Source of the DNA: Patescibacteria group bacterium
GTDB lineage: Bacteria > Patescibacteriota > Microgenomatia > UBA8517
Length of the DNA: 64,000 nt
Direction of reading: 5' to 3'
NCBI GenBank assembly: GCA_026416845.1
Contig: JAOAEL010000004.1
Location: 11,271-75,270 of the forward strand
Position 1 is the stretch's first letter. Each line of letters begins with the position of its first letter. The notes beneath the pieces were generated by a model, which worked only from the letters and a program-made list of their open reading frames with translations, was not told the DNA's origin and made no database searches. Below are positions 4,818 to 47,141 of the stretch, piece after piece. Made by a program: the position numbers and the translations under genes.

Positions 4818-5340
4818 AAAAATATAAGAGAATTGCAACTGTTCGGACATCTCTTATTTTTTTGTTTTTGATCATTTCTAATATTTCCTGTAGTGTAAAT
4901 GCTGACTTTTTTAAAATTTCAATTTCTTCCTCAAAATATTTTTGATTTATTTTTAGATTTTTCCCTATAAATCCATATGTTGTCCCTACTAAATAAGCGG
5001 GTAGTATTTTGAATGGTCCTAAAGGTATTAATTCTTTGGGTTCAAAACCAATTTCCTCTATCAATTCTCTTTTTGCAGTTTGTTTTAACAATTCTTCTCT
5101 TTCTACTTTCCCTCCTGGTAGGACATATTCATAAGTGTTAGATGCAGTACAGAATTTTTTAATTAAAATTATTTTATTGTCACTTGTGATAGGAATTATC
5201 ATTACACTTTTTGTTACTCCGTTTAAAGAAACAGTTTCCCAAGTTTGCTTTTTTTTGTTAATTTTTACATCAACTTCCCATAGCGTAAAAAGCTTGCTTT
5301 GGAATTTTTGTTTTTTGGATATTATTTTTTTGCTTATCAT
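4768..5340 (-). CDS. Nudix hydrolase
   Basis: Canonical Nudix box GGKVEREELLKQTAKRELIEEIGF (Gx5Ex7REUxEExGU). The C-terminal about 35 aa look like read-through of terminator/overlap sequence (YFFTFFHCQNDCLAPQHH). Confidence 0.8.
   Translation of the reverse strand: MISKKIISKKQKFQSKLFTLWEVDVKINKKKQTWETVSLNGVTKSVMIIPITSDNKIILIKKFCTASNTYEYVLPGGKVEREELLKQTAKRELIEEIGFEPKELIPLGPFKILPAYLVGTTYGFIGKNLKINQKYFEEEIEILKKSAFTLQEILEMIKNKKIRDVRTVAILLYFFTFFHCQNDCLAPQHH
4824..4870 (+). terminator. Hairpin plus T-tract (terminator-like) 3' of NMNAT, lying inside the C-terminal coding tail of the convergent Nudix ORF
   Basis: ATAAGAGA...(18-nt loop)...TCTCTTAT (4824-4857) followed by TTTTTTTGTTTTTG; A-run upstream makes it potentially bidirectional. 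Confidence 0.4.
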
Positions 5341-6368
5341 TGTTTTATCAATTTGATTTTTCTCAATTCTTGGACATTTTTTGCGCCAACTCCAAACATT
5401 GCAACTTTCAATTCATACGCAAGTCTTTCAATTAATTTTTCTACCTCTTCTTGTGATACCAATGCCGCTTTTGCAAAAGGTTGCGCGATTCCTACCAGAT
5501 CGCTTCCTAATGCTATTGCTTTTGCGATTTGAATGCCGTTTCTAATGCCCCCACTGCCTAAAATTGTGATTTTATCTGTAAATTCTTTGCGCAATTTATT
5601 GGCTATTGTGATTGAATCTGTCGTTGGTATTCCCCATTCACCAAAGAGTTTTCCCAGATTTTCAAAACCTTCCCTGCGCATTCCTTCTATCACTGCCCAG
5701 TTTGTTCCTCCCCATCTTGCGGTGTCAAAGATTCTAACCCCTACCTTATAAAGTCTTTTTATTACATTTTTCGAGAGGCCAAAACCCACTTCTTTGGCTA
5801 TTACAGGTGTTGATAGCTTTGGTATTAATTTTTTGAGTTTTGGTAGTAGGTCTTTGAAATTTCTATCGCCTTCAGGTTGAATTACTTCTTGGATTAGGTT
5901 TATATGAACTGCAAGCGCGTCCGCGTTAATCATATTTATGATTTCTTGGAATTCTTTTTCAGAAAAACCGTAGTTTAGTTGTACAAGTCCCACATTTGCT
6001 ATAAGTGGTATATCAGGTGCGTCATCTCTTACCATGAACAGATCTTTTAGTTTGGGGTTTTCAATTGCTATTCTTTGACTGCCTACTCCCATTGCAATAC
6101 CATATTTTTGAGCGGCGTGAGCTAAGTTGCGGTTTATCCGTTTACCTTCAGCCATGCCTCCTGTCATGCATGAAACAAAAAAAAGATAATTCACTTTTTT
6201 GCCCAAGAATGTCGTAGAAAGGTCAATTTCATCAAAATTAATTTCAGGGAGAGCATTATGAATAAATTGGTATTTATCAAATCCAGCCGAACCTATTTGC
6301 GAACTTTCATTTAGAGCGATTTTCAAATGATCTTTCTTTCTTTGTTTTATATTTTTTGTGTTATTCAT
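5337..6368 (-). CDS. fni: Isopentenyl-diphosphate delta-isomerase, type 2 (FMN-dependent)
   Basis: N-terminal RKKDHLKIAL, TIM-barrel FMN-binding region ILGSGGIRNGIQIAKAIALGSDLVGIAQPF; length about 340 aa typical of IDI-2. Confidence 0.8.
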   Translation of the reverse strand: MNNTKNIKQRKKDHLKIALNESSQIGSAGFDKYQFIHNALPEINFDEIDLSTTFLGKKVNYLFFVSCMTGGMAEGKRINRNLAHAAQKYGIAMGVGSQRIAIENPKLKDLFMVRDDAPDIPLIANVGLVQLNYGFSEKEFQEIINMINADALAVHINLIQEVIQPEGDRNFKDLLPKLKKLIPKLSTPVIAKEVGFGLSKNVIKRLYKVGVRIFDTARWGGTNWAVIEGMRREGFENLGKLFGEWGIPTTDSITIANKLRKEFTDKITILGSGGIRNGIQIAKAIALGSDLVGIAQPFAKAALVSQEEVEKLIERLAYELKVAMFGVGAKNVQELRKIKLIKQ

Positions 6369-6421
6369 TGTTTTTTGTCGTTTTTTCTAAAAATTTATGT
6401 TGCTGTTGCATTAACTTTTGA

Positions 6422-8329
6422 TCACTCTATAACTTGCAAGTCCCAGAATTTACGATACAAACCGTTTTTTATTTTTAACAATTCTTCGTGCTTTCCTTCT
6501 TCTACAATTCGTCCATCGTCAAGCATATAGATATAGTCAGCCTTTCTGGCATTTGTGATTCTATGAGTTATGAACAAGATGCCTGATTTTTCTTTAAGTT
6601 TTCTTAATTGATTAAATATTTTTGCTTCATGTTCAACATCCAGCTGATTTGTTCCCTCGTCAAATATTATAAATGGTCTTTGTTGTAAAAAAATTCGTGC
6701 TAAAACTATTAGTTGTTGCTCTCCGCCGGAAAGAGAATAGTTTTCTCCAATAATCGTATCGAGTTTATCGGGGAGTTTGCGAATTGTGTCCGCAATTCCC
6801 ACTGTTTCAAGCGCTTGCCATTGCTTTTTATCAGATATGTTTTTTTCATTTGATCCAACTGTAAGATTTTCGCGAATTGAGTGCCGCCACAAGAAAAATG
6901 GTTCTTGTTGAATGATTGAGAAAAGACTTAGAAGTGTTTCAATTGAAATATCTCGTATATTTATGTCATCAATACAAATTTCTCCTGAATCTGCTTCTAG
7001 TCCGTGCAATAAAAGATGGGTTATTGTGGTTTTCCCTGATCCATTTCTTCCAAGCAAAGCCACTATTTTCCCTTTTTCAATTTTTAAAGACACGCTTGAT
7101 AATACTTGTCTTTTTTCTTCTCTCTTTTTTAAAGCTTCTTCCCAGTCTTTTATTTCCCATTTATAGTTGCCAATTGAGAATTTATTTAAAACATCTTTTG
7201 TCTTTTGAATCATTTTTGCAATGTATAATCGTTCTTCTTCCCCTAAATCGGGATAAGTGAAACTAACTTTTTTTAATTCTATTTTATTTACTTGAAGCAG
7301 GGTTCTTTTTGGGTTTTTGTTAACTATAATCCGAGAATTAAGCATGAGCACAAAATTAATTCTGTCAAATTGCATGTCTATATCGTGCCAATCGCGCAAA
7401 CTTTGCATTATATTTAAAAAGATACTTGCGATTTGCATAGCATAAGCTGTTATTAGAGTGTATGTGCCGATGCTGATTGTTCCTTGCAAGACTTGAATTC
7501 CAATTATTATGCTTACAATTACTGTTAAAGCATTTTTGGTCAATAAAATATAGGATTGAAACATGAATCTGGAAATTGCCTGGTTTTGATCTAACTCATA
7601 AGCTTGCTTGTTTTTTTCTTTATATTGATCTAAATATTTTTTTGTTACTCCAAGAATTTTTAACTGAGGAAAGTCATATCTAAGCAAAGACTCTATTTTC
7701 CATTTTTCGTCTCTAGTTATTTCTTGTTTGATCGCAAAAAGAACTTCGTGTTTATTGGCAACATTTGCTATTAGAGCTTGTGCAGACCCAAAAATCAGAC
7801 AAAATATAAGTATTTTGTAATCAATTAAACCAATAATTGGGATAATTGTTGCGATACTTGCGATGTCGTATACGCGATCGGTGAAAAAATAAACGCAGTC
7901 GCGTCCAAAATTTGTTGCCGACAGTGTTACGTTTGTTACAATCCTGTCGTTTTTTTTGTTGGCGAAAAATCCCCAATCCAACTCGTTTAACTTATTCCAT
8001 ATGTTTTCGCTTATGTAGTTGGCAAATTTATAAGATGCTTTATGCCATAGTTTCTCGTTTGTTTTTTCAAACACAAAACGTCTTATTGTTTCAAGAAAAA
8101 ATGGGATTATAAGAAGAACAAAAAGTATTGTCGGGCTTTTATTTGATGATTCAAAAAAGTCAGTTGTGTTTTGTAGGTAATCTAATTGAAGTTTAACAAG
8201 GTAAGGAATAGCCGCGCCAATTACTGAAATTGCTGTTTGGATAAGGAATATGGAAATGATTAAAAATCTGAATTTTAAGAATATTTTTTTAATTAGGTCG
8301 TATTTGTTTTTAATTTGGAACTTATCCAT
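6422..8329 (-). CDS. ABC transporter, fused permease/ATP-binding exporter
   Basis: N-terminal 6-TM domain; Walker A GRNGSGKTT, ABC signature LSGGEQQ, Walker B IIFDEGTNQLD. Confidence 0.85.
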   Translation of the reverse strand: MDKFQIKNKYDLIKKIFLKFRFLIISIFLIQTAISVIGAAIPYLVKLQLDYLQNTTDFFESSNKSPTILFVLLIIPFFLETIRRFVFEKTNEKLWHKASYKFANYISENIWNKLNELDWGFFANKKNDRIVTNVTLSATNFGRDCVYFFTDRVYDIASIATIIPIIGLIDYKILIFCLIFGSAQALIANVANKHEVLFAIKQEITRDEKWKIESLLRYDFPQLKILGVTKKYLDQYKEKNKQAYELDQNQAISRFMFQSYILLTKNALTVIVSIIIGIQVLQGTISIGTYTLITAYAMQIASIFLNIMQSLRDWHDIDMQFDRINFVLMLNSRIIVNKNPKRTLLQVNKIELKKVSFTYPDLGEEERLYIAKMIQKTKDVLNKFSIGNYKWEIKDWEEALKKREEKRQVLSSVSLKIEKGKIVALLGRNGSGKTTITHLLLHGLEADSGEICIDDINIRDISIETLLSLFSIIQQEPFFLWRHSIRENLTVGSNEKNISDKKQWQALETVGIADTIRKLPDKLDTIIGENYSLSGGEQQLIVLARIFLQQRPFIIFDEGTNQLDVEHEAKIFNQLRKLKEKSGILFITHRITNARKADYIYMLDDGRIVEEGKHEELLKIKNGLYRKFWDLQVIE

Positions 8330-8335
8330 TTTTTA

Positions 8336-9478
8336 TCACATTTCCCTCTCTATCATATACTGTGCTATGCCATCTAGATAATTGATGCCTTCTTCTTCCC
8401 ACCTTTTATTGCGCATTGATGAAATTGCTTCTTGAGCTTTTTTGGCCCATTTAATGGATAATCTTTTGCAGTATTCCAAAGATCCTGTGTTAATTACAAT
8501 GTTCCTTGCTTCTTGTGCTTCAGTATCACTTAAGTTTCTTTTTCCCCACAAAAGTGAAAGTTTTTGTTTTTGGTGTGTGTTGGATAATTCCAAAGCCTTT
8601 GTGATCAAAAGTGTCATTTTCCCCTGTCTAAGGTCTGAATGGGCAGGTTTGCCTGTTTTCTCAGGATTTCCAAAAAGTCCCAAAATATCATCTTGCAATT
8701 GAAAGGCAATTCCGCCGGGGATTGCATAGTCGGATAATATTTTCAGATCTTGTTCTTTTGCTCCTGCCAAGATTGCTCCGATATGCAAAGGGTTTTCATA
8801 TGTATAAACCGCAGTTTTGGCTTTGTACATGTCTAAAATTTCTTTTTCTGACGCTTGTGCTTTATTTTCCAAAGTAATGTCGTAAGCTTGTCCAAAGGCT
8901 GTGTTTGCTATTCCTCTGAAAAGCTTGTTGAGAGCTTTTAATTTTTTTTCTGAAGAAAATTGGCTTTTGCCAAGTATTTCATATCCCAGACAAAGTGCGA
9001 TATCGCCTGCATTTATTGCCATGCTATTTCCGTAGTGAGCAGGGTCTCCTTTGTAATTGTTTCCCTTATGATATTCTTCGTAGAATTTATGGGTTGTTGC
9101 TCGCCCTCTCCTTATCTCGTCTTGATCCATGAAGTCATCGTGTATTAAAAGAGCGGTTTGTATTAGTTCTATGGACATGGCGGCGTTTATGATTGCCTTA
9201 TCGTTTTTGCCATGGAGCATTTTGTAAGCGTAGTAAATAAAGGAACTTCTAAGTCTTTTGGCAGGACGCAAATTATGTTCTTTTATGTGTTTGAAAATGT
9301 GTTTTCTAATGTTTATTTGTTGTTTGCTGGCTTTTTGTTGAGAAGTATTGTTTAATTCTTTGTCAAAATATTCTTGCAGATGCTTATTTATTTTGTTCAC
9401 AAAGTTCTCTAAATTATTTTTTGCATCAGTTGCTTTCTTGCTTTTTGTGATAGTTACAATTTGTCCTATTGTGCTCAT
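8336..9478 (-). CDS. trans-Polyprenyl diphosphate synthase (IspA/GGPPS family)
   Basis: First Asp-rich motif LIHDDFMDQDEIRRGRAT and second Asp-rich motif FQLQDDILG. Confidence 0.85.
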   Translation of the reverse strand: MSTIGQIVTITKSKKATDAKNNLENFVNKINKHLQEYFDKELNNTSQQKASKQQINIRKHIFKHIKEHNLRPAKRLRSSFIYYAYKMLHGKNDKAIINAAMSIELIQTALLIHDDFMDQDEIRRGRATTHKFYEEYHKGNNYKGDPAHYGNSMAINAGDIALCLGYEILGKSQFSSEKKLKALNKLFRGIANTAFGQAYDITLENKAQASEKEILDMYKAKTAVYTYENPLHIGAILAGAKEQDLKILSDYAIPGGIAFQLQDDILGLFGNPEKTGKPAHSDLRQGKMTLLITKALELSNTHQKQKLSLLWGKRNLSDTEAQEARNIVINTGSLEYCKRLSIKWAKKAQEAISSMRNKRWEEEGINYLDGIAQYMIEREM

Positions 9479-9548
9479 TTTTGTTTGTTTGACGTGGCAA
9501 GCTATGATTATACATTATTTGTATTAACTACTATGATATAATTTTTTT

Positions 9549-10829
9549 ATGCTTAGGAGTCAAAATATTTATCTTCCAAAAGGCACTATTGTACCAAATC
9601 ATATAGCTATAGTAATGGATGGGAATGGCCGTTGGGCCCGTTCTAGAGGATTGACTCCAACTAAAGGTCATGAAGCTGGCGCAAAAGCTATTTTCGAGAT
9701 TATAAAAGCCTCTCGTGATTTTGGAGTTCACACGCTTACTTTGTGGGGATTTTCAACTGAGAATTGGAAAAGACCTCCAAAAGAAGTTGCCAAAATTTTG
9801 TCTATTGTTTTGTTTTATTTAAATAAAGAAAAAGAAACTTTTAAGAAAGAAGGCGTGAGGCTTGTGCATTTGGGCAGAAAAGAAAAACTTCCCTTTGAGC
9901 TTAGAAACACAATTACTAAGATAGAAAAGGAAACTAAAAATCACACTAATTACATTCTTAATCTTGCAATTGATTATGGGGGGAGAGACGAGATAATTAG
10001 AGCGGTTCAAAAAATGATTAAAGATGGTATTTCACCTCAAGAAGTAACAGAAGAAAAGTTTGCTTCGTATTTGGACACAGCTGATCAGCCATATCCGTAT
10101 CCTGATTTGTTTATTCGAACTTCTGGGGAGCAAAGAACGAGTGGTTTTCTGCCTTGGCAAATGACTTATACGGAGTTTTATTTTGAGGAAGATCATTTGC
10201 CTGATATGACTGTTGAGAAACTGAAAGCCGCTATTCTTGACTTTAGCAGACGCAGAAGACGTTTTGGCGCGAAAGATAAGGTTGTGCATTTTACTTTTAA
10301 ACCCGAAGTTACTGCCAAGCTGGAGCTTGCGTGGTGGAGACTTGCCAACATTCCTGAAGGCAAAGGCTTTACGCAGTATGCAATTGAACATGTTAAAGAA
10401 CAATTTGGTATTTCTGGTTCTTTGGCAAAGCAAGCCGCGGTTTTGATGACAGAAGCTGTTTTGGAAGGCAAAAAAAGCAAATGGCAAAAAGCCAAGTCTA
10501 GACTTGTTGCGTTTTACAAATTATTAAAAAGTGAATTGAAGCTGGCATTTGAACCATCTCTTGCGGCTTCTTTGGAAGTTAAGTTCTGGCAGGAAACGAA
10601 TGGAAAAGAATCCGCTTCGGAAGTTCATAGCATAGAAAATACGGCAAGTCAGCTTTATGCGGAAGTGTACAGGATTTCGCTTCTTCAAGCTGCGAAACTT
10701 GCCCGTTTGAGAGTTCTGGCGGCGATAGAAATGAATTTGGCAGTAAAAGGTATGGGAGATTATCATTGGGCTAAAGCTGAAGATTATTTGGCAAAATTTT
10801 ATACGGAGTTAAAACGAAGAGTCGCTTAA
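9549..10829 (+). CDS. uppS: Undecaprenyl-diphosphate synthase (cis-prenyltransferase) with about 190-aa C-terminal extension of unknown function
   Basis: N-terminal HIAIVMDGNGRWA and downstream cis-IPTase core (about 230 aa); residues about 240-426 have no recognisable motif (helical, K/A/E-rich). Confidence 0.8.
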   Translation: MLRSQNIYLPKGTIVPNHIAIVMDGNGRWARSRGLTPTKGHEAGAKAIFEIIKASRDFGVHTLTLWGFSTENWKRPPKEVAKILSIVLFYLNKEKETFKKEGVRLVHLGRKEKLPFELRNTITKIEKETKNHTNYILNLAIDYGGRDEIIRAVQKMIKDGISPQEVTEEKFASYLDTADQPYPYPDLFIRTSGEQRTSGFLPWQMTYTEFYFEEDHLPDMTVEKLKAAILDFSRRRRRFGAKDKVVHFTFKPEVTAKLELAWWRLANIPEGKGFTQYAIEHVKEQFGISGSLAKQAAVLMTEAVLEGKKSKWQKAKSRLVAFYKLLKSELKLAFEPSLAASLEVKFWQETNGKESASEVHSIENTASQLYAEVYRISLLQAAKLARLRVLAAIEMNLAVKGMGDYHWAKAEDYLAKFYTELKRRVA

Positions 10830-37375: not shown

Positions 37376-38806
37376 ATGTTTAGAAAATCTTTTATTTCAA
37401 TTTTTTTTCACAAAAATAAGCTCTATGTCGTGCAGTTATCTTCTGACAAAAAGAAAATAAAAAAGCACATATCAATTCCGATTGATAATAAAATAATAGT
37501 TGATGACAGAGTAAAAGACACTTCACTTCTCTCAAAAGTAATTGCCGATGTTTGGGAGAAGATGAAATTTAAAGAAAAATTTGTGGCGATTGTGATACCA
37601 GAATATTGCGCTTTTACAAAATTGATAAAAGTTCCCAAGATGCCAAACTCTGAACTCCATGAAGCAGTGTTATTGCAGAGCCAGGAATTTTTACCAAGTG
37701 AGAAAGAAAGATTTATTTTGGATTGGAAGATTGTGGATGATTTTCAAGATGAATACGAAGTTTTGGTCGTTGTGGTGAAGGAAAGTTTGCTTTTTGGGTA
37801 CATAAGAGCTGTTGAGAAAGCAGGTCTTTTCCCTCTTTTAGTTGAGATACCTTCTCTATCTTTGTCCCGATTGATAGGATATGACGAATCGGTAATTATG
37901 GTTTATGTCTTGGATCAAAGCGTAATCATTATTTTTTCTAAAAAAGGCAAAGTTATTGCAAGTTCGGTTTTATCCACTTTTGATTTTGAGGAAATATTTG
38001 TTACAGTGAAACGGATTTTAAATCATTACAAAGATGTACAAGTAGATTCAATTAAGGTTAGTGGGGATTTAAATGGAAATGCTGAATTTGTACTGGAAAG
38101 TTTGAGCAAGATTTGCCCCAACACTTCTTATGTAGACTTAAGTTTTGGTGGTTTTACACGTGATGAAGCGCAAGATTATTTGATACCTTTATCTATGCAG
38201 ACTGCCAAGCCTTCAGATCCTTTGGATGTTTACACTATTAACCTTTTGCCAGAAGAATTAGTTGTAAAATACAAAAACAAAGGATTGCGTTTGCGATTGT
38301 GGGGTTTATTGTTGTCTATCACTTTTTTTATTTGGATTTGTTTGTTTAGTGCACTTGGAGTTTATCTTTACCTAAACAAATTGCTGGTAAATTTTGAAAA
38401 ACTTGCTATCAAAAGTGACATAACAAAAGAGCAAGAATCTGCCTTAAAAAACTCTCAAGAGATTATTTCTGTTACAACAAAAGTTTTAAATATAAAAAAT
38501 GCGACTAGCTCGCCTATTGAGTTGCTTTCTATTATTGAAAAAGCCAGCCCAAAAGGTGTTGCAGTAAGAGAATACAAATTAAACTTTGACAAAGGGCAAG
38601 TCAACATAAAAGGCATTGCGCCTAATCGATTGTCTTTAATTGAATTTAAACAAAACTTGGGTAAAAGTGAAAACGTACAGAATGTTCAGGTGCCAATTTC
38701 ATCTTTTGAAGTTGATGCTAATTTAGAGTTTGACATTAGTTTTAGTTATATAACTAATGCCACAAAAATAGAACACAAAAATGACAAACAAAGACAACCA
38801 AAGTAA
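37376..38806 (+). CDS. pilM: Type IV pilus assembly PilM-PilN fusion protein
   Basis: About 300-aa actin-like cytoplasmic domain, then TM helix (LWGLLLSITFFIWICLFSALGVYLYL) and about 150-aa periplasmic PilN-like domain. Confidence 0.65.
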   Translation: MFRKSFISIFFHKNKLYVVQLSSDKKKIKKHISIPIDNKIIVDDRVKDTSLLSKVIADVWEKMKFKEKFVAIVIPEYCAFTKLIKVPKMPNSELHEAVLLQSQEFLPSEKERFILDWKIVDDFQDEYEVLVVVVKESLLFGYIRAVEKAGLFPLLVEIPSLSLSRLIGYDESVIMVYVLDQSVIIIFSKKGKVIASSVLSTFDFEEIFVTVKRILNHYKDVQVDSIKVSGDLNGNAEFVLESLSKICPNTSYVDLSFGGFTRDEAQDYLIPLSMQTAKPSDPLDVYTINLLPEELVVKYKNKGLRLRLWGLLLSITFFIWICLFSALGVYLYLNKLLVNFEKLAIKSDITKEQESALKNSQEIISVTTKVLNIKNATSSPIELLSIIEKASPKGVAVREYKLNFDKGQVNIKGIAPNRLSLIEFKQNLGKSENVQNVQVPISSFEVDANLEFDISFSYITNATKIEHKNDKQRQPK

Positions 38807-39515
38807 CAAAAGATATATGCACAATATTAAAGAATTGCCTGATGAGAAAGAAGATGTTTTTGTTGTCGAATCCGGTGAAAAATTAGATTTGGGCACTCAT
38901 GATTTTGATTTAGTAGATAAGCATTTGTCTACTCTTGATGATGATCAAGATAATGCTGGATTTTCTAACCAATCTAAAGAAAAAATAGTTTCTCTTAGGG
39001 AGGGCGTTTTAATAGTAATCAATGTAATCTCAATAACTTTTTTGGTGTTTTTGTTGTTTAGACTTCCTTATGAAGCGAAGAAAGTTCATAATTTACAAGT
39101 TGAAATCCAAAAAAATCAAAGCATTCAAAATACTGATGTTGCAGGTATAGAGTTGGCAAAAGAAAAAGCTGATAAATTAAAGAGTTTGTTTTTAAATGAT
39201 GAGGGCATTGTGCAATTTGTAAGCGCGATTGAGTCTCTAAAACAAAAAAATCAGTCTTTTGTAAAAGTGGAATTTCCTTCGCAAGAAGTTACAAAAGACA
39301 AAACTGGCAACATGACCATTCCTGTAATAATAGAATTATCTGGTAGTTGGTTAGAGGTTGGTAGAGGTTTTTCGGAAATTGAAGCGCTTCCATACCTTTT
39401 TAGGGCAGTTTCAATAGATATCAGGCCAAACAAGGTTGATCAAAATAAATTTGATGTCAAGTATGGGGGAGTTTTGTATGTTAGCGAGCAAACACCAAAG
39501 ACCAAAAATAGATAA
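38781..39515 (+). CDS. PilO-like bitopic pilus assembly protein (hypothetical)
   Basis: Acidic N-terminus, single TM (VLIVINVISITFLVFLLF), coiled-coil then periplasmic domain; follows pilM-N. Confidence 0.5.
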   Translation: MTNKDNQSNKRYMHNIKELPDEKEDVFVVESGEKLDLGTHDFDLVDKHLSTLDDDQDNAGFSNQSKEKIVSLREGVLIVINVISITFLVFLLFRLPYEAKKVHNLQVEIQKNQSIQNTDVAGIELAKEKADKLKSLFLNDEGIVQFVSAIESLKQKNQSFVKVEFPSQEVTKDKTGNMTIPVIIELSGSWLEVGRGFSEIEALPYLFRAVSIDIRPNKVDQNKFDVKYGGVLYVSEQTPKTKNR

Positions 39516-39723
39516 ATTTACTTTTGCAATAATTGCCACTTTTTGTGTATTGGCGATGATTGTTTTGTGGACATTTCAGACTATCTTCTCTAGTATCATA
39601 ATCTCTCAAGAGATTACAGGTTTGGACACAGAATCAGAATTAAAGGTAAATCGTTTAAATGTTGACGAAGCTTATGAATTTGTTTTTAAAAAAGAGAAGA
39701 AGAGTTTATTTATTCAAGAATGA
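39436..39723 (+). CDS. Small membrane protein (possible PilP-like; start uncertain)
   Basis: ORF overlaps preceding gene by 80 nt; true start probably internal (hydrophobic FAIIATFCVLAMIVLW). Confidence 0.3.
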   Translation: MIKINLMSSMGEFCMLASKHQRPKIDKFTFAIIATFCVLAMIVLWTFQTIFSSIIISQEITGLDTESELKVNRLNVDEAYEFVFKKEKKSLFIQE

Positions 39724-39753
39724 TAAATTTTAGATAAAGCGTAATATATATGT

Positions 39754-40215
39754 ATGAAAACTTTTTTGACAAAGGGACTTACTTTGATAGAGCTTTTGTT
39801 GGTTGTGGCAATAATAGGTATTTTATCATCTACCTTGATAGTTGCTGTAAATCCCGCAAGACAGCTTGCCAAAGCAAGAGACGCTCAACGCGAAGCGGAT
39901 CTTATTGCAATACTTAGCGCGATTTATCAGTATGCTTCTGAACATAGTGGTGATTTGCCTGACACAGATGGCAATCCTAATGCAAGCAATTTCCCAACAA
40001 CATTAAGATGCATAGGGACAAATGCAACATGTTTTGACTTGGCGCGTGCTGGCGATGGCGAAGATACAATTGTTCCTGACTATATGGCAGAAATACCTGT
40101 TGATCCTCAAACAGGTTCTACTGCAAACACTGGATATTTAATAATGGTAGACGTAAATGGCCGTTTAATTGCATCTGCCAGTGGAGAGACAAAAACTATT
40201 AGAATCACAAGGTAG
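39754..40215 (+). CDS. pilA: Type IV major pilin (PilA-like prepilin)
   Basis: Classic N-terminus MKTFLTKGLTLIELLLVVAIIGILSS (G|LTLIE...) and about 120-aa globular domain with Cys pair. Confidence 0.88.
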   Translation: MKTFLTKGLTLIELLLVVAIIGILSSTLIVAVNPARQLAKARDAQREADLIAILSAIYQYASEHSGDLPDTDGNPNASNFPTTLRCIGTNATCFDLARAGDGEDTIVPDYMAEIPVDPQTGSTANTGYLIMVDVNGRLIASASGETKTIRITR

Positions 40216-40745
40216 AATTTTTTTGTTTTACCTTTTTGAATTTGATTGCAAAGATTGGATAAAGTTTTTTGACCTCAAGATAACTAAAGTTTGTTTTTAT
40301 ACCTACGACATCTTTTGTTTAATTTATATGTATATGGTAACTAAGGTTTTTAGTTATGAACCTATACTTTATTATTGAAATTATTGAAAAATTTTTTGTA
40401 ATGTCTTATCCAAAAGCTTTAAATTTATATTATATATTATTATATTATTTCTCTTGTATTTATTTTAAATAATAAATGTTTTGCTATTTTTAAGTAAGAG
40501 TTTGCGATTATAGAATTTAGAATTATAGTATTTTGATTTAACAAGCTTAATTTGCCTTTTTATAAAAAAAAGGTATAATACACTTTTGAAAAAACTCTCC
40601 CGTTTGATTTAATTATTTTTTTTCCTGCCAAAGTTTGCTTTTTTAATATTTGTTTGTATTTTTTTGGTTAGTTTTAGTATCTTTTTTAATTTAAGCTTGA
40701 TTTTTCTCCCGTAATTTTAGTTTAGTTTTTTTAAATCTAAAATAC
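40216..40745. promoter_or_regulatory. 530-bp AT-rich non-coding spacer with low-complexity (TATTA)n runs and candidate sigma70 -10 elements
   Basis: No ORF over 70 aa with sensible composition; contains TTATAAAAAAAAGGTATAAT (extended -10 like) and several A/T homopolymer tracts. Confidence 0.4.
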
Positions 40746-42722
40746 ATGGCTAAATTAGAAAGAAGTTTTTATATCGGTGAACAACCAAAAATTTTGGCTT
40801 TAGTGGAAGGTAGTATGGCTGATCTTTTAAAGGCACAGCTAAATGATTATCAAATTGATTCTTATAATAGACAAATTTTAGATTCTTTAATTTCTGGTAT
40901 ATCAACCGATGCTATATTACCTTCTAAAGCTGGTAAATTTCGTGACCCAAAAGATTTGGCCAATTATGCTTTGTCTGGTTTGCCTGGAATTAGCGAGGGT
41001 GTTGTGAATGGGAAATTTAAAGTTCTTGTAGTTGGTGGTGGTTTTGGTTGCGGTTCAGCAAGAGAACATGCTCCAAGGGCACTAAAAGGAGCAGGTATAG
41101 AATTGATAATTGTGGTTGGAGGCAAAGCTGAGAAAATTTTTAAGGAGAATTGCTTGTATTGTGGTGGACCAAAAATATTGGAATTGCCTAATGATATTGA
41201 TAAGTTGCAGTCTGTTATTGGCAAATTGAATTGTGAAGGTGAGTTTGTTTGGGCATGTGATGACATAAGTGATATCGAATTGGAAATTGTTAATGCTGGA
41301 GGTTTGCTTGAATATACAAAAAGAAGATTGGAAGGTCGGTCTAATGTTCCTTTCATATTTCATCCTTCAGTTAGTTCTAGGCATCCTATGACCGCAGTTG
41401 AAAAATTATTACACAAAAAGTTTAAAAATATTCATCCGCTTACGTCTTATGTTATGCCAGGAGATGTTGGGATTGTAGATTTAGATTTACGTTTTTCTTA
41501 TGAATTTATGACAGAAATGATTATTGAAATGCTTGTAAATACTTTTGGTAGTGATGTTAAAAATATGATCAAAGACCCTGATTCTATATTACTTTTTGAA
41601 GATCATTTGGTTTGGTTGCCGGAAAAATTTCGATCATTAATTCAATCTCAAAGAAAAATTTCTAATGATTTTAATTTGAAACTTTTTGCTCAATCTGATA
41701 ATTTGCCTGGGGCTTTAGGAATTTGCCATACACTTATTGTGGAAAATGCAATGGTTTTGCCTGGTCAAACTGTTATTGGGACTGATTCGCATACTTGTAG
41801 CGCCGGTGTTTTAGGTGCATTTGCATTTGGATCTGGCGCAACTGCGGTTGCATCTTCTTTTGTTTCTAAAGAGGCAATAGTTAGAGTTCCAGAAACCGTA
41901 AAGGTTGAATTTTCAGGGAATCTTAAACCAGGTGTTTTTGCTAAGGATGTTATGCTTTTTTTATTAAGTCAACCTTTAATAAAAAATGGAGGTGCTATTG
42001 ATAAGATTTTGGAATTTGTAGGCACAGGAATTCAAGATTGGAGTGTTGATGAGCTGTTTGTTTTAACGAATATGTCAATAGAGTGTGGGGCTCTTGGAAT
42101 AATACCTCAACCGGTGGAAAGTGTTGTTTCGCATTTGCAAAATGTTACTCGTATGAGTCGAAATGAAATAATGAATATGTATATGCCTAGTGATCCAGAT
42201 GCTAATTATGCTAATGTTTTGCATATAAATTTATCTGAATTGCAACCTATGGTAGCAACTCCAGGACATCCAACAAATGGAACTCTTTTGTCAAATTTGT
42301 TAGGGACAAAAATTACTCGAGCTTTTGTAGGTTCGTGTACTGGTGGCAAAATAACAGATTTACGGGAAGTGGCCAAAGTTCTAAAAGGTCGTAAAGTTTC
42401 TGTTCCTTTAGTTGTTCAGGTTTCTTCTATGAAGGTATATGAGTTAGCTATTCAAGAAGGTATAGTTGATATTATCGAAAGTGCTGGTTGTAAGTTGTTG
42501 TTACCCGGTTGTGGAGCATGTATTGGAATGGGTCCCGGCAGAGTGGAAGATAAATTTGATGTAATTATTTCAAGTACAAATAGAAATTTTCCTGGGAGAA
42601 TGGGTAGAGCCAGTATAAACGGCCAAGAAGTAGATGGTGGAGATATTTATTTGTCAAACCCAAGTGTTGTTGCAGCTAGTGCTATCAAAGGTTATATATG
42701 TTCAGTTAATGAATTAGACTAG
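40746..42722 (+). CDS. Aconitase-family hydro-lyase, fused small(LeuD-like)-large(LeuC-like) subunit, permuted order
   Basis: N-terminal swivel domain GGGFGCGSAREHAP (LeuD GxxFGCGSSREHA); C-terminal catalytic domain with GTDSHT, Cys ligand region SCTGG and STNRNFPGRMG. Confidence 0.8.
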   Translation: MAKLERSFYIGEQPKILALVEGSMADLLKAQLNDYQIDSYNRQILDSLISGISTDAILPSKAGKFRDPKDLANYALSGLPGISEGVVNGKFKVLVVGGGFGCGSAREHAPRALKGAGIELIIVVGGKAEKIFKENCLYCGGPKILELPNDIDKLQSVIGKLNCEGEFVWACDDISDIELEIVNAGGLLEYTKRRLEGRSNVPFIFHPSVSSRHPMTAVEKLLHKKFKNIHPLTSYVMPGDVGIVDLDLRFSYEFMTEMIIEMLVNTFGSDVKNMIKDPDSILLFEDHLVWLPEKFRSLIQSQRKISNDFNLKLFAQSDNLPGALGICHTLIVENAMVLPGQTVIGTDSHTCSAGVLGAFAFGSGATAVASSFVSKEAIVRVPETVKVEFSGNLKPGVFAKDVMLFLLSQPLIKNGGAIDKILEFVGTGIQDWSVDELFVLTNMSIECGALGIIPQPVESVVSHLQNVTRMSRNEIMNMYMPSDPDANYANVLHINLSELQPMVATPGHPTNGTLLSNLLGTKITRAFVGSCTGGKITDLREVAKVLKGRKVSVPLVVQVSSMKVYELAIQEGIVDIIESAGCKLLLPGCGACIGMGPGRVEDKFDVIISSTNRNFPGRMGRASINGQEVDGGDIYLSNPSVVAASAIKGYICSVNELD

Positions 42723-43051
42723 TATTTATGCCAAGGAAGTTTTGCGTTTGGGTTGCTAAATAATTGTGCGTTTGCAAATGATATGAAAATACCACCGACA
42801 AAAAAAGATAAAAGCGACCAACCGGAAAGAAATTTTGAACATTCTGCTTGCTGGTCAGTTTCGACTAATACTAAAGAAATTCCTATATTCAAAAAAGCCC
42901 ATGCCAAGTTTAAATATGGCGATGAAACCCTTTTAAAAGGTGTCATATGTGATTGCCCAATTACTCCTTTAATAAGATGGGGTAAGCTATTAAATAAAAA
43001 CAAGCCTGCAAAAAAAGCTTTTACAATTTCTAAAACTAGAGATTGTATCAT
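42719..43051 (-). CDS. Small membrane protein (hypothetical), antisense between two + strand genes
   Basis: 110 aa with 3 clear hydrophobic helices; alternative + strand ORF 42753..43124 looks compositionally non-coding. Confidence 0.3.
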   Translation of the reverse strand: MIQSLVLEIVKAFFAGLFLFNSLPHLIKGVIGQSHMTPFKRVSSPYLNLAWAFLNIGISLVLVETDQQAECSKFLSGWSLLSFFVGGIFISFANAQLFSNPNAKLPWHKY

Positions 43052-43098
43052 TTTTTTTAAGATTTTACTTATGTACAGTTTGTATCTTTATGATTTAA

Positions 43099-43896
43099 AT
43101 GTCAATGGTCATCTGTATGCCTGAAAGATTTAAAATAAATAGACCAAATAGATCTTTACCGGGTGTTTATTTTGGTAATGAATGGTTATTGCAAGAGTCA
43201 GAAATTGATCTTGCTATTGTATCTGGGTTAGTTGTTGCTTTGAGGATTGCAGATCAACCTCCATATGGTATTTTATTTAGAGTTGATGATTATAGTTTAG
43301 TTTCCAAAGTATGGACTTTAAAAGGTAGAATTGATAAAAATGGTGTAATAGATCCAAAATATAAACCTGTGACTGCACTTAGTAATTATCAACTAGATAT
43401 GCATATTGATTGGAATCGTTTAGATAATATGAAATTTTCCAGAGGTCAAATTGATGAATTGTTAGATTTGGGTTTTCATACAATTTTACCTTTAAAATAT
43501 ACTTCTAATATTCCAAATCATTTAAGGAGCATTGGTTCTAATGGAGAAAATATTTCGACTATGAGATTTAAAAAAGGTGGGGAAATGCATGCATTGGTTG
43601 AGAAAATTGCAAATTTAGATGCAAACGCTATAGTTGGTGGGACATCTCTTAATAAAACTGGCCAAACTGTTTATATGGATTCTGCTCAAGTGCTGTCTGA
43701 TTTTGGTGGTATTGGTAGTGTGATTGATTTGTTTGTTGTTTCTGAACTTAACAACGAAGTTAGATTGGATTTTGGTGCTTTTCACCCTATGATAGAAGTT
43801 TGTTTTAGTGGGATAAAAGTTATTCGTAAAGGTATAAATTTTGAATCTTTGATAAGTTATTGTAGAGTTAATAATCTTAAAGTTTATGAAAGCTGA
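43099..43896 (+). CDS. Hypothetical protein (265 aa) between aconitase-like and LeuA-like genes
   Basis: Coding-like composition, no recognisable motif; 3' end overlaps next gene by 11 nt (operonic). Confidence 0.6.
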   Translation: MSMVICMPERFKINRPNRSLPGVYFGNEWLLQESEIDLAIVSGLVVALRIADQPPYGILFRVDDYSLVSKVWTLKGRIDKNGVIDPKYKPVTALSNYQLDMHIDWNRLDNMKFSRGQIDELLDLGFHTILPLKYTSNIPNHLRSIGSNGENISTMRFKKGGEMHALVEKIANLDANAIVGGTSLNKTGQTVYMDSAQVLSDFGGIGSVIDLFVVSELNNEVRLDFGAFHPMIEVCFSGIKVIRKGINFESLISYCRVNNLKVYES

Positions 43897-45109
43897 AAGA
43901 TTTATTTGTGTTAGAGACGAAACTTTAAGAGATGGTTCTCAGCAACCTGGAATAAATCTTAATAGTGATCAAAGGAGAAAATTGGCTTTAATTTCTGCAT
44001 TATTGTTGAAAACTCCAACTGATGAATTTAGAAATCAAATTGATTTAGGCATGCCAGAAACGAGTAATCCTATGCTTGAAACTATTCTTCAAATATCTCG
44101 AGAAATTTTGTGTATTAGTAATGTTGATATTTTTGTAACTGGAAGATCTACTCGTAAGGCAATTGATACTATGTGTGAATCTTTGCGTGAAGTTCCAGAA
44201 GAAAAGAGAATTATTGCTCCGTTTATAGGTATTTCTGAAGAGCATAGAACAAAATTGGGTTTAAGTAAAGTTGAAATTTTAGAAAAAATCGAGCGAGAAA
44301 TAAGTTACGCGATTAATTGTACTTGTAGGGTTCATTTCCCATTAGAGGGTGGTTATGACGCTTGTTTGCAAGATCTTCCTTATTTTTTGGAAGTAATTAG
44401 ATCATTGCAAGAAATTGGTGTTGAAGCAATTGTATTGTGCGATACTGTAGGTAAAGCTCTTCCATTTGGTTTAAAAAGCAAGCTGTCTTACGGAGATGTT
44501 GTTAGTGTAATCAAACAGAATTTTCCAAGTATTAAGGTTTCGGTTCATTGTCATGATGATTTTGGATTGGCTATTGCTAACACATTAGAAGGGGTGATTA
44601 AAGGTGCTGATATTGTTGATGGAACTTTTTTTGGAATTGGTGAAAGAGCGGGCAATGCTTCTCTTCAAACTTTACTTACGCTTTTAGTAACTAGAAAAGA
44701 TTTGTTAGATATTTTGATTTTTGCAGATCTGAATAATTTGTACCAAATTTCTATGCAAGTCCAAGAAATTTTAGGGATAAAAGTTGCAGATAATATTCCA
44801 GTCGTTGGGCGCAATTCTTTTTCTCATTCATCTGGTATACATCAAGATGGAATTTTGAAAGATCCAAAAGTATATCAACCATATGAACCTCGGTTTGTTG
44901 GGCGGGAAGGTCATAATTTAGTACTTGGTTATTTATCTGGTAAAAGAGGGATAGAGTTTATATTGAAAAATAATTATGGATTATCTTTATCTGAGGAGCA
45001 GTTAGAAATTGTAACCTCACGGTTTAAAGAATCTTTTAATATGCCCGGCACTCCAGAAGAAAAATTGTTGAAAATTGTTCATGATGTTTTGGTTTCTGAA
45101 CAAAAGTAG
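43886..45109 (+). CDS. 2-Isopropylmalate/citramalate/homocitrate synthase family protein (HMGL-like TIM barrel)
   Basis: N-terminal VRDETLRDGSQQPG (DTTLRDGEQ motif) and HCHDDFGLAIANTLEGVIKGADIVDGTFFGIGERAGNASL (HxH...GERxGN). Confidence 0.8.
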   Translation: MKAERFICVRDETLRDGSQQPGINLNSDQRRKLALISALLLKTPTDEFRNQIDLGMPETSNPMLETILQISREILCISNVDIFVTGRSTRKAIDTMCESLREVPEEKRIIAPFIGISEEHRTKLGLSKVEILEKIEREISYAINCTCRVHFPLEGGYDACLQDLPYFLEVIRSLQEIGVEAIVLCDTVGKALPFGLKSKLSYGDVVSVIKQNFPSIKVSVHCHDDFGLAIANTLEGVIKGADIVDGTFFGIGERAGNASLQTLLTLLVTRKDLLDILIFADLNNLYQISMQVQEILGIKVADNIPVVGRNSFSHSSGIHQDGILKDPKVYQPYEPRFVGREGHNLVLGYLSGKRGIEFILKNNYGLSLSEEQLEIVTSRFKESFNMPGTPEEKLLKIVHDVLVSEQK

Positions 45110-45167: not shown

Positions 45168-46511
45168 TTGATGATTAAAGTTTTTGATGCTGATACTAAA
45201 TTAAGCAAATCTGAGCTTGCAAATTCTGCTGAAGTAGCAATATCTGCTTTGTGGAAAATAGATAAAATAATATTGACTACTACTGATATAAATTTTTTAG
45301 TAGATAAAGTTGTAAATGTGATTCTTCAAGAGCTAGGCTACATTGAATTAGGCTACGAGATAATTGTACTTTCGCTTTTTAATCGAAAGACTAAAAAACT
45401 TGAGAGAGTTTCTATATCACAAACCGCAACTGCTCAAAAAGCATTGTTAAGTTCGCCTATACCTTTTGAAAAAATCACTTTTAGTATTCGAGATGTTGAA
45501 AATTTATCAATTATGGCTTTAAGAAATCGTAAAGCTTACATAACTAACGATCTTTCTGATATGCTTTATCCTGTTGTTAAAAGAGAGATTGTAAGAAATG
45601 TGCAAAAAAAACTTGGTATTTTATCTAGCATTGTATTCCCAATATATAGTAGAGATCTTCCTTTGGGTACAATTATTTTTAGTTTAAGTAAATTGGAGTC
45701 AGAGATATTAGAATTTGAGAAACAAATCTTATTAGGTTTTGTAAATGCTGTAGGAATAGCGATAGATCATGCATTTCTTTTCAAAAAATTAAGAAATGCG
45801 AATCTTAAGTTAAAATTATTGGATAAACAAAAAGATGAGTTTTTGAACATGGCGGCGCATGAACTACGCGCTCCTATGACTGCTATAAAAGGTTATATTT
45901 CCATGATTATTCAGGGAGATGCTGGTAAGATACCAGAAAAGGCAAGAAGGTACTTAGCAGATGCCAGTGCAGTAACAGATCGTTTGGTAAGACTTGTGAA
46001 TAACATGCTTAATGTATCGAGGATAGAGGAAGGCAGGCTTATTTATCAAATAGAAAAGGAAAATTTATCTGTTTTGGTGCAATCAGTTTTTAATCAGTTT
46101 AGACCTGAGGCAGAAAGAAAAGGACTTGATTATCTGCTTGATATCCCTCGTGATATAAAGGATAAGGTTGAGGTAGATCCAGATAGAATTCAGGAGGTAA
46201 TAGGTAATCTTGTAAGCAATGCCATTAAATACACTGAAAAAGGTTTTGTTAAACTTTCTTTATCTCAATCTGAACCCGCAAGAATTCGTTTTGAAGTTTC
46301 TGACTCAGGACCCGGTATATCTGAAGAAGAATTGAAAAAGCTTTTTGGCAAGTTTTATCGAGCTGAAAGTTCTGTAGGTAAAACTACAGGCACAGGACTT
46401 GGACTTTACATATCCAAGCTTTTGGTGGAAAAGTTTAGTGGAAAGATTGGAGTTAATTCTAAATTAGGAGAAGGCAGTGTTTTCTGGTTTGAACTGCCTG
46501 TTGTGAATTAG
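45168..46511 (+). CDS. Cytoplasmic sensor histidine kinase (GAF-like N-domain + HisKA + HATPase_c)
   Basis: H-box HELRAPMTAIKGY, N-box NLVSNAIKYT, G1 DSGPGI, G2 GTGLGL; no TM segments. Confidence 0.85.
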   Translation: MMIKVFDADTKLSKSELANSAEVAISALWKIDKIILTTTDINFLVDKVVNVILQELGYIELGYEIIVLSLFNRKTKKLERVSISQTATAQKALLSSPIPFEKITFSIRDVENLSIMALRNRKAYITNDLSDMLYPVVKREIVRNVQKKLGILSSIVFPIYSRDLPLGTIIFSLSKLESEILEFEKQILLGFVNAVGIAIDHAFLFKKLRNANLKLKLLDKQKDEFLNMAAHELRAPMTAIKGYISMIIQGDAGKIPEKARRYLADASAVTDRLVRLVNNMLNVSRIEEGRLIYQIEKENLSVLVQSVFNQFRPEAERKGLDYLLDIPRDIKDKVEVDPDRIQEVIGNLVSNAIKYTEKGFVKLSLSQSEPARIRFEVSDSGPGISEEELKKLFGKFYRAESSVGKTTGTGLGLYISKLLVEKFSGKIGVNSKLGEGSVFWFELPVVN

Positions 46512-47141
46512 TTAGCCTTTTGCTTTTGATACTGCAAAAATTATACCAACTAGAATTACAAGTACAATTGCGGCAACTATGCTTGCTCTTTGCATTGCGC
46601 TAAACAGCTTTTCTTTTGGATTTGATTTTTCTTTAGTAACTTGTTCTTGATTTTGCGCAGAATATGTTTCGGTATTGGTTAAATTTAGATTAACATTTGT
46701 TGGTGTTACGCTTTCTTTAATATTAGGTTCCAGAAATGATATTGGCTCTATGTCTCCTTTCATGACCATTTTCCCAGTAGGATATTTTGCTTTCGGATCA
46801 TTTTCTATGGTTACAAATAAATTTTTGAATGGTATTTTTGTTTTTACCGATATTCTTCCTAATCCTAATTCAGCTAATTTGATTGGTGGGCTTTCGTTTG
46901 TTGGTGTTGCCCACAAAATATAATACAAGATGCTGTTATCTGCTGGATACTTAAGATTTCTACAAGTAACTGAAACTAAATAATTTGAATCTTGCATTAA
47001 AATGGATGTGGAATAACACCTGTAACTGTCTGTAGTTAAGCTTCTCATTTGTATAATTCCTTCTGAAGCATAGATGCTTTTTGTTGTTATGGTCCAAAAT
47101 AGAAAAAAAATTAGAATTGAAATTGCAAAATTTTTAAACAT
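46512..47141 (-). CDS. Secreted protein with C-terminal TM anchor (hypothetical)
   Basis: N-terminal signal peptide and C-terminal hydrophobic helix (RASIVAAIVLVILVGIIFAV). Confidence 0.5.
   Translation of the reverse strand: MFKNFAISILIFFLFWTITTKSIYASEGIIQMRSLTTDSYRCYSTSILMQDSNYLVSVTCRNLKYPADNSILYYILWATPTNESPPIKLAELGLGRISVKTKIPFKNLFVTIENDPKAKYPTGKMVMKGDIEPISFLEPNIKESVTPTNVNLNLTNTETYSAQNQEQVTKEKSNPKEKLFSAMQRASIVAAIVLVILVGIIFAVSKAKG

Follow-up and report, generated by a model that had tools for sequence, protein, structure and literature searches.

The 64,000-nt stretch of DNA analysed here (the window; positions 11,271 to 75,270, forward strand, of contig JAOAEL010000004.1, assembly GCA_026416845.1, from a Patescibacteria group bacterium) encodes a fused LeuD-LeuC-like hydro-lyase of 658 aa, a 265-aa protein with the YrdC/Sua5/YciO fold and a 407-aa synthase of the LeuA/homocitrate synthase family, followed by a cytoplasmic sensor histidine kinase. 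We tentatively interpret this locus as a co-inherited unit for metabolism and signalling that is restricted to some Patescibacteria, and not as a piece of a standard leucine operon. Its hydro-lyase, synthase, YrdC-like protein and kinase show strict co-inheritance, and because a dehydrogenase is lacking, an ordinary leucine pathway is improbable. No description of such a module was found in the literature searched.

Three enzymes and a sensor kinase are co-inherited

Nine distinct module loci in six gene arrangements were compared (the window, L001, L002, L007, L009, L090, L092, L093 and L094), collected from the contigs of the closest hydro-lyase relatives and from a separate scan seeded with the YrdC-like family. 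The fused hydro-lyase, the HMGL-type synthase and the YrdC-like protein were found together in all nine, and the scan seeded only with the YrdC-like family returned solely loci that also carry the hydro-lyase. A metagenome scan with a four-sequence alignment of the YrdC-like family recovered three loci, and a single-protein scan of GTDB genomes gave no matches. The first-pass annotation of this DNA had proposed that the 265-aa protein, interposed between hydro-lyase and synthase, could be a partner of these enzymes, a proposal that the co-occurrence in nine of nine loci strongly supports. The N-terminal sensor region of the kinase (~215 aa) was orthologous in each of the eight loci long enough to include it (31-63% identity, E from 1e-29 to 1e-92); its divergence between loci paralleled that of the hydro-lyase, and relatives gave GAF matches. 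The window also encodes a single-domain CheY-like response regulator, and alignable counterparts adjoin the kinase in L007, L009, L093 and L094, making five loci in all. In addition, six of the nine loci carry, on the minus strand, a gene for a 110-aa membrane protein that has three hydrophobic segments by hydropathy, is 60-69% identical in L001 and L002 and matched no Pfam, NCBIfam, PADLOC or PHROG family. The annotation had left the sensor kinase, response regulator and small membrane protein of the unit unrecognised.

Another contig (L003; GCA_038996885.1, JAWAGJ010000033.1), deposited as Candidatus Aenigmatarchaeota, carries the same bacterial module with a hydro-lyase 60% identical to that of the window. 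A longer contig, L002, encodes a protein identical to that of L003 and runs on into the same pilus genes, and L003 is probably a mis-binned Patescibacterial contig. An anti-phage defence function or a phage origin of the module was considered and rejected, as the PADLOC and PHROG matches comprised only generic kinase and receiver domains.

The hydro-lyase is a permuted member of the aconitase superfamily

Both domains of the fused protein scored above the Pfam gathering cutoffs of the aconitase superfamily, PF00330 with 255.5 bits (cutoff 28.7; E=1.4e-75) and PF00694 with 31.8 bits (cutoff 22.8; E=2e-7). Profile searches therefore place the protein in the aconitase family, as the first-pass annotation had done, and not in a non-aconitase family; the domain positions given by Pfam and NCBIfam likewise agree with its description of a permuted order, with the swivel domain preceding the catalytic domain in reversal of the usual arrangement. 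The best NCBIfam matches were PRK00402 (333 bits, cutoff 385), hacA_fam (326, cutoff 385.7) and IPMI_arch (298), all below cutoff. The LeuC/LeuD equivalogs were not reached (TIGR02083, 271 versus 610.65; TIGR00170, 165 versus 560.25; TIGR02084, 48.6 versus 245.85), nor were the HacA/HacB equivalogs (NF040615, 276 versus 550; NF040604, 56.7 versus 230). Among solved structures in the PDB, the catalytic domain is closest to Methanocaldococcus jannaschii HacA (4kp2; 234 bits, compared to 194 for isopropylmalate isomerase, IPMI), while the swivel domain is closest to the small subunit of IPMI (3vba; 61-64 bits, compared to 51 for the small subunit of homoaconitase, HACN), so that what these structures suggest about the substrate is mixed.

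Among 19 hydro-lyase relatives, the cluster ligands C531, C589 and C592 were invariant, as were S104, R106, D347-S348-H349-T350, N612-R613-N614 and R618. Because these ligands and catalytic residues are invariant, the enzyme looks active. Its specificity loop, PSKAGKFRDP, presents A-G-K-F at the positions aligned to YLVY of IPMI and YLRT of HACN. Across the clade the loop is variable with a consensus of x-(G/A)-G-x-F, and the hydrophobic YLV(Y/M) of IPMI is absent; the position of HACN Arg26 is occupied by Lys in the window and by R, K, Q, E, A, I, S or F across the clade, being Lys or Arg in about 11 of 17 members.

Among the closest known systems are the archaeal-type IPMI and homoaconitase (M. 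jannaschii MJ0499/MJ1277 and MJ1003/MJ1271; 4kp1, 4kp2, 3vba and 2pkp), with which the hydro-lyase shares its Fe-S catalytic and swivel domains. Archaeal-type LeuCD and HacAB give the best profile and PDB matches and have in common with it the cluster ligands, the catalytic Ser, DSHT and NRNFxGR. In contrast to them, the hydro-lyase is fused small-then-large, forms its own clade, has a loop that is neither YLV(Y/M) nor YLRT, scores below the subfamily and equivalog cutoffs and has no adjacent dehydrogenase. LeuC and LeuD occur as separate subunits or as a large-then-small fusion, with leuB; here there is one chain, small then large, and no LeuB. With AcnB the protein shares the placement of the swivel domain before the catalytic domains, but the extra N-terminal region of AcnB is missing (the AcnB models span 844-852 positions, the hydro-lyase 658 aa), and the AcnB models scored 110-142 bits versus cutoffs of 782-1287 and versus 326-333 bits for the archaeal-type IPMI/HACN models. 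This bears out the remark in the first-pass annotation that the likeness to AcnB is one of domain order only.

In a neighbour-joining tree of the catalytic domain, the permuted fusions formed one clade in 100 of 100 bootstraps, separate from canonical LeuC/HacA; they have a single origin. Two branches were seen within this clade, one Patescibacterial and associated with the module, the other found in Acidobacteriota, Planctomycetota and Myxococcota. The latter (sequences P0020-P0120; loci L005, L095 and L096) comprises hundreds of proteins of ~660 aa at 38-40% identity, whose genes lie in varied housekeeping contexts and lack the module partners, and whose loop is an invariant, hydrophobic PGWVCFYY-DETL as opposed to the variable P(S/T)x(G/A)G(R/K/..)F of the Patescibacterial branch. 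Since both the loops and the genomic contexts differ, function should not be transferred from one branch to the other. The permuted fusions thus constitute a subfamily of the aconitase superfamily that is monophyletic and uncharacterised and has hundreds of members in these three phyla. On one Myxococcota contig, a sister-branch fusion lies between genes for an HMG-CoA synthase and an NAD-binding epimerase-like protein. A link of the module to mevalonate or isoprenoid synthesis was rejected, as the isoprenoid genes of the window are more than 30 kb distant and the Myxococcota homolog belongs to the other branch with its different loop. Also rejected was the impression from GTDB tblastn searches that Thaumarchaeota, Ignavibacteria and other groups commonly carry the permuted fusion: local open reading frame (ORF) and hidden Markov model (HMM) analysis showed that the 80 loci concerned carry an ordinary leuC followed by a separate leuD, often with leuA and leuB beside them, whose high-scoring segment pairs had been joined. 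These 80 loci were used as a positive control.

The 265-aa protein has a YrdC fold and keeps the ATP-binding tetrad

The first-pass annotation had left the 265-aa protein as an unknown; structure prediction and a family profile instead identify it as a divergent protein of the YrdC/Sua5/YciO fold. The sequence alone matched no Pfam (E<=0.1, including PF01300) or NCBIfam family, and word-indexed homology searches found only 2-3 relatives. A deep profile search recovered 12 family representatives among 1.84 billion proteins; this tiny family matches the rarity of the Patescibacterial hydro-lyase clade, which we count as support for the module. A 15-sequence family profile matched MTH1692 (1jcu) at E=1e-7 and three threonylcarbamoyl-AMP (TC-AMP) synthases at E ~1e-6, and also TsaN, St-Sua5, Escherichia coli YrdC and HypF, while 7 of the 15 members matched PF01300 on their own (best E=1.2e-8). 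An AlphaFold2 (AF2) model built from a 14-sequence alignment reached a pLDDT of 86.5 and a pTM of 0.85, compared to a pLDDT of 35 with a two-sequence alignment. When this predicted structure was compared with the PDB by Foldseek, ranks 1-41 were all YrdC-like domains (E down to 3e-8, probability 1.0, TM ~0.6), among them Sua5, TsaC2, YciO, HypF and the carbamoyltransferases TobZ, GdmN, NovN and VtdB, and RibB appeared only at E>0.1.

In Pa-Sua5, K56-x-R58 and S143-x-N145 form the ATP-binding tetrad, and T33, S181 and R195 bind threonine (PMC10321239). When 19 family members were aligned with the Pa-Sua5 domain, the tetrad was kept in 17-18 of them (K75, R77, S183 and N185 in the window protein). 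Of the threonine-binding set only the equivalent of R195 is kept, in 16 of 17 members (R243 in the window); the T33 position was never Thr in any of the 19 (D52 in the window), and the S181 position was never Ser. Because the tetrad and the R195 equivalent are kept and the T33 and S181 equivalents are absent, we consider the protein a probable ATP-using, adenylate-forming enzyme that lacks the substrate-binding residues of TsaC.

The fold, the K-x-R/S-x-N tetrad and the R195 equivalent are thus shared with TsaC/Sua5, YciO, HypF and TobZ/GdmN/NovN. Compared to TsaC/Sua5 and other YrdC-like domains, identity is only 12-17%, and insertions bring the protein to 265 aa versus ~190-210; compared to TsaC/Sua5, it lacks the T33 and S181 equivalents as well as a SUA5 or Kae1-like domain. 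No canonical TsaC was found in the window or the other loci, which is uninformative for the whole genomes. A precedent is offered by YciO, a YrdC paralog whose active site is intact and whose as yet unassigned role is a different one (PMC12506659). The usual neighbours of tsaC are dprA, smg and aroE, and that of yciO is rnm (PMC12506659), whereas the 265-aa protein is encoded with a synthase and a hydro-lyase. The module thereby offers a concrete setting in the genome for what would be a new functional branch of the YrdC/YciO family, in which the members other than TsaC are still without assigned functions.

The synthase belongs to the HMGL-like family and falls below the LeuA, homocitrate and citramalate synthase cutoffs

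The synthase showed the HMGL-like barrel (PF00682, 134.7 bits, E=5e-39), the post-barrel subdomain HCS_D2 (PF22617, 61.4 bits, E=1e-16) and the metal ligands of the Claisen-condensing synthases of this family, D16, H221 and H223, which were invariant in eight module synthases. HCS_D2 ends near residue 382 of 407 with no domain beyond it, in agreement with the first-pass annotation, which had judged the C-terminal regulatory domain of LeuA to be absent. The LeuA equivalogs were not reached (NF002086, the best, 250 versus 532; TIGR00973, 238 versus 598.7), nor were those of homocitrate and citramalate synthases (TIGR02146, 193 versus 413.55; TIGR02660, 173 versus 462.9; TIGR00977, 142 versus 450), and the scores lay below half of every LeuA, CimA, NifV or homocitrate synthase cutoff. 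The usual E-D-x-x-R motif is altered to E-GGY-DACL; in homocitrate synthases its Arg contacts the distal carboxylate. The pocket fits neither LeuA nor homocitrate synthase.

With the LeuA, homocitrate and citramalate synthases (DRE-TIM metallolyases) the enzyme therefore shares the HMGL-like TIM barrel, HCS_D2, the metal ligands and the R-D-G motif, and it differs from them in its missing regulatory domain, its altered E-D-x-x-R and its occurrence in the module as two lineages. These lineages are not each other's nearest relatives: they match each other with 50-117 bits, compared to 160-190 bits between the window type and canonical LeuA. Because a synthase is always retained although its lineage differs, the partnership with a synthase appears to be under selection.

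The loci lack a beta-decarboxylating dehydrogenase

The PROSITE signature PS00470 and a LeuB HMM built from ordinary leu operons were used to search for the dehydrogenase that would complete a chain-elongation pathway. Neither the 64-kb window nor any of 12 related module loci yielded a dehydrogenase of the LeuB or isocitrate dehydrogenase (ICDH) type, while the signature detected 25 LeuB genes in ordinary leu operons as a positive control. Likewise, a Pfam scan of window ORFs of 290-465 aa revealed housekeeping functions and no Iso_dh domain. The statement in the first-pass annotation that the window holds no LeuB-like dehydrogenase is therefore confirmed, and in all loci a synthase and an isomerase occur without a beta-decarboxylating dehydrogenase in cis. 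The same annotation had described the enzymes as the first two steps of a 2-oxoacid chain-elongation module. Its family assignments of hydro-lyase and synthase are correct according to the profile searches; the pathway assignment holds at the level of homology only, as every LeuA, CimA, NifV, LeuC/D and HacA/B equivalog cutoff was missed by a factor of two or more and the specificity loop fits neither IPMI nor HACN.

The canonical elongation modules (LeuABCD, the alpha-aminoadipate pathway to lysine and the coenzyme B genes AksADEF) also combine a synthase with an aconitase-type isomerase and sometimes an aminotransferase, but the beta-decarboxylating dehydrogenase is missing here, and a YrdC-fold enzyme, a sensor kinase and a CheY-like regulator are the companions instead. 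The module thus brings together the first two reaction types of 2-oxoacid elongation and, in the place of the dehydrogenase, a putative ATP-dependent YrdC-fold enzyme, a combination for which no description came to light. Patescibacteria are generally regarded as having hardly any biosynthetic capacity, and the strict conservation of a three-enzyme module with its own kinase in such bacteria therefore points to a specialised product that they have to make themselves. The most fitting description of the locus is that of a novel variation on the theme of synthase plus isomerase, coupled to an ATP-dependent enzyme of the YrdC fold and a dedicated two-component system, in a small group of Patescibacteria only.

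Proposed reactions and alternative explanations

In the reading that we tentatively favour, the synthase would condense acetyl-CoA and a 2-oxoacid into a 2-substituted malate, as its homology and intact catalytic residues suggest, and the aminotransferase, where present, would supply the 2-oxoacid from an amino acid. The permuted [4Fe-4S] hydro-lyase, for which homology and intact residues point the same way, would dehydrate and rehydrate this compound to the 3-substituted isomer or would halt at the ene-acid. Judging from the genomic context, the NAD-dependent oxidative decarboxylation may be replaced by the YrdC-fold enzyme, which would use ATP to adenylate a carboxyl or carbamate group either of the pathway product or of an amino acid derived from it by way of the aminotransferase. 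The adenylate so activated would go on to an acceptor. The same context suggests that the cytoplasmic GAF-like kinase and the CheY-like regulator may sense or report a metabolite of the pathway. A link to amino acids is provided by the aminotransferases encoded in four of the nine loci, which we count in favour of this reading. The enzyme of L007, encoded 15 nt upstream of the hydro-lyase gene, is a bona fide IlvE (337 bits versus a cutoff of 279), and the others are generic class I/II aminotransferases, those of L001 and L090 being closest to aspartate aminotransferases.

Several points weigh against this interpretation. Synteny shows coupling and not the order of reactions. The specificity loop of the hydro-lyase is not conserved within its clade, and no aminotransferase is encoded in the window. 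Other parts of these genomes could well hold genes for a dehydrogenase and a canonical TsaC. To our knowledge, the known YrdC-like enzymes, as represented in the Foldseek match list, all adenylate carbamates (giving TC-AMP or carbamoyl-AMP) and not the carboxylates of hydroxy acids. A YrdC fold with an intact tetrad is, moreover, no guarantee of such catalysis, as the example of YciO illustrates (PMC12506659).

A more specific outcome, which we regard as quite unlikely, is the production of a non-standard hydroxy or amino acid by synthase and hydro-lyase, with the aminotransferase taking part where there is one, and the conversion of this acid by the YrdC-fold paralog to an acyl- or carbamoyl-adenylate. 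This adenylate might serve as donor for a modification resembling N6-threonylcarbamoyladenosine (t6A) with an amino acid other than threonine, of the N6-hydroxynorvalylcarbamoyladenosine (hn6A) type, or might itself be a nucleotide-linked small molecule read by the co-inherited GAF-like kinase. We know of no established source of the amino acid in hn6A. If the nucleotide-linked fate were true, the unit would be a self-contained system for the synthesis and sensing of a metabolite signal.

LeuB would also be missing from the module loci if an ordinary 2-oxoacid elongation (such as that from valine to leucine or from citramalate to isoleucine) were split, so that a dehydrogenase of the LeuB type or another one acting on 2-hydroxyacids is encoded in a different part of the genome and the YrdC-like protein and the kinase are neighbours with no catalytic part in the pathway. 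The window-type synthase is indeed nearest to bacterial LeuA (238 bits with TIGR00973 and 160-190 bits with canonical LeuA ORFs), the hydro-lyase falls in the archaeal-type IPMI/HACN group, and a genuine IlvE gene adjoins the hydro-lyase gene of L007. We nevertheless consider this explanation unlikely: the LeuA, LeuC and LeuD equivalog cutoffs are all missed by at least the factor of two given above, no module locus has a LeuB although leuB adjoins leuCD in ordinary operons, the loop lacks the hydrophobic YLV(Y/M), and the YrdC-like protein and the kinase sensor remain linked in all loci despite shuffled gene orders. The enzymes might alternatively form a tricarboxylate branch, in which an Re-citrate or homocitrate synthase and an aconitase or homoaconitase lead to 2-oxoglutarate or 2-oxoadipate and, through an aminotransferase, to glutamate or 2-aminoadipate. 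HacA as the best structural match of the catalytic domain (234 versus 194 bits for IPMI), the basic residue at the HACN Arg26 position in about 11 of 17 clade members and the likeness of the L001 and L090 aminotransferases to aspartate aminotransferases are consistent with such a branch, and the synthase family is known to include Re-citrate synthases (PMC12016533). Against it stand the lack of ICDH and homoisocitrate dehydrogenase (HICDH) in every locus, the poor conservation of the basic loop residue, the loss from the synthase of the E-D-x-x-R Arg seen in the aligned homocitrate and isopropylmalate synthases and the better fit of the swivel domain to the small subunit of IPMI than to that of HACN (64 versus 51 bits), and we judge it very unlikely.

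The co-inheritance of kinase and regulator with the enzymes would also be expected if the locus were mainly a sensing device, in which an Fe-S aconitase-type protein, labile to oxygen and iron, an RNA-binding YrdC-like protein and the kinase act as a redox or iron sensor, together with HbpS-like proteins in some loci, by analogy with the moonlighting of IRP1 and AcnB and with HbpS-SenS-SenR. HbpS-like (PF03928) genes do lie in or beside the module in three loci (L007:13519-13920, L009:15235-15639 and L093:5206-5643), and YciO, of the YrdC family, has been proposed to interact with RNA (PMC12506659). The strong conservation of the catalytic residues of the hydro-lyase, of the synthase and of the YrdC tetrad argues instead for catalysis, the synthase and the aminotransferase would have no role in such a sensor, and HbpS-like genes are absent from window-type loci; this analogy is accordingly the explanation to which we would give the least weight, as highly improbable. 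In L009, the HbpS-like gene lies directly upstream of the kinase gene, an arrangement that recalls the three components of HbpS-SenS-SenR.

Organisation of the locus and neighbouring genes

The features of the locus are listed in Table 1. The three plus-strand ORFs of the enzymes lie at the coordinates given by the first-pass annotation, including the 11-nt overlap between the YrdC-like and synthase ORFs, and the motifs that it had quoted are all present in the translations (GGGFGCGSAREHAP, GTDSHT, SCTGG, STNRNFPGRMG, RDETLRDGSQ, HCHDDFG and GERAGN). It overlooked the conserved minus-strand gene of 110 aa between the hydro-lyase and YrdC-like genes, the 3' end of which overlaps the stop codon of the hydro-lyase gene.

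Table 1. Positions of the module genes, domains and promoter candidate within the window
Feature	Position	Strand	Basis
Sigma-70-like promoter candidate, TTGCCT-16-TATAAT	40552..40579	+	Consensus match only, 10/12 positions
Fused hydro-lyase gene, 658 aa	40746..42722	+	ORF and domain profiles
Swivel (LeuD-like) domain, residues 52-194	40899..41327	+	TIGR02087 E=1.7e-18; loop PSKAGKFRDP
Catalytic (LeuC/HacA-like) Fe-S domain, residues 216-653	41391..42704	+	DSHT, SCTGG, CGACIG and NRNFPGR motifs
Small membrane protein gene, 110 aa	42719..43051	-	Homology in relatives and hydropathy
YrdC/Sua5/YciO-fold protein gene, 265 aa	43099..43896	+	Family profile, AF2 model, Foldseek
Gene for condensing enzyme (acyl-CoA:2-oxoacid) of the LeuA/homocitrate synthase family, 407 aa	43886..45109	+	HMGL-like and HCS_D2
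Cytoplasmic sensor histidine kinase gene	45168..46511	+	Pfam HisKA and HATPase_c; GAF-like N-terminal sensor of ~215 aa
Single-domain CheY-like response regulator gene, 139 aa	47221..47640	+	PF00072 E=5.6e-20

The promoter candidate is the best promoter-like match of the region and is followed by an AT-rich leader of ~165 nt (40580-40745) before the hydro-lyase gene, in which only a weak hairpin was seen. No Rfam match to a riboswitch or T-box was obtained for the leaders of the window, L001, L002 and L090, and the DNA upstream of the hydro-lyase gene showed no sequence conservation between loci. In L001 (9960-10000) and L002 (9955-9990), a GC-rich hairpin followed by a U-run (e.g., CCCCCGCAACTTATTGCGGGTTTTTTT) lies ~10-25 nt before the start codon of the hydro-lyase gene and could be an attenuator or leader.

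An MmyB-type helix-turn-helix regulator is encoded in two module loci; the window has neither such a regulator nor an HbpS-like gene. Between the kinase and regulator genes of the window, a minus-strand gene (46512-47141) encodes a 209-aa protein with an N-terminal hydrophobic segment and no family match; L002 has a protein of similar size at the same position, and the 209-aa protein may belong to the window-type module as an accessory component. Upstream of the hydro-lyase gene in L002, beyond a non-coding gap of 1.1 kb, lies a gene of the asparagine synthase family (7262-8869); a tblastn search of the window for an equivalent was negative. Type IV pilus genes (PilM/N/O-like proteins and a pilin) are located directly upstream of the module in the window (37376-40215), L002 (3767-6629) and L094 (979-3782), and 2.4 kb upstream of it in L009 (5267-7612). 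Together with the CheY-like regulator they hint at a link to pilus control, and their proximity may equally be due to chance in small genomes. The isoprenoid group of the window (5340-10826) comprises a polyprenyl synthase, an unusually long homolog of undecaprenyl-diphosphate synthase (426 aa) and a flavin mononucleotide (FMN)-dependent dehydrogenase-like protein, which is possibly a type 2 isopentenyl diphosphate isomerase.

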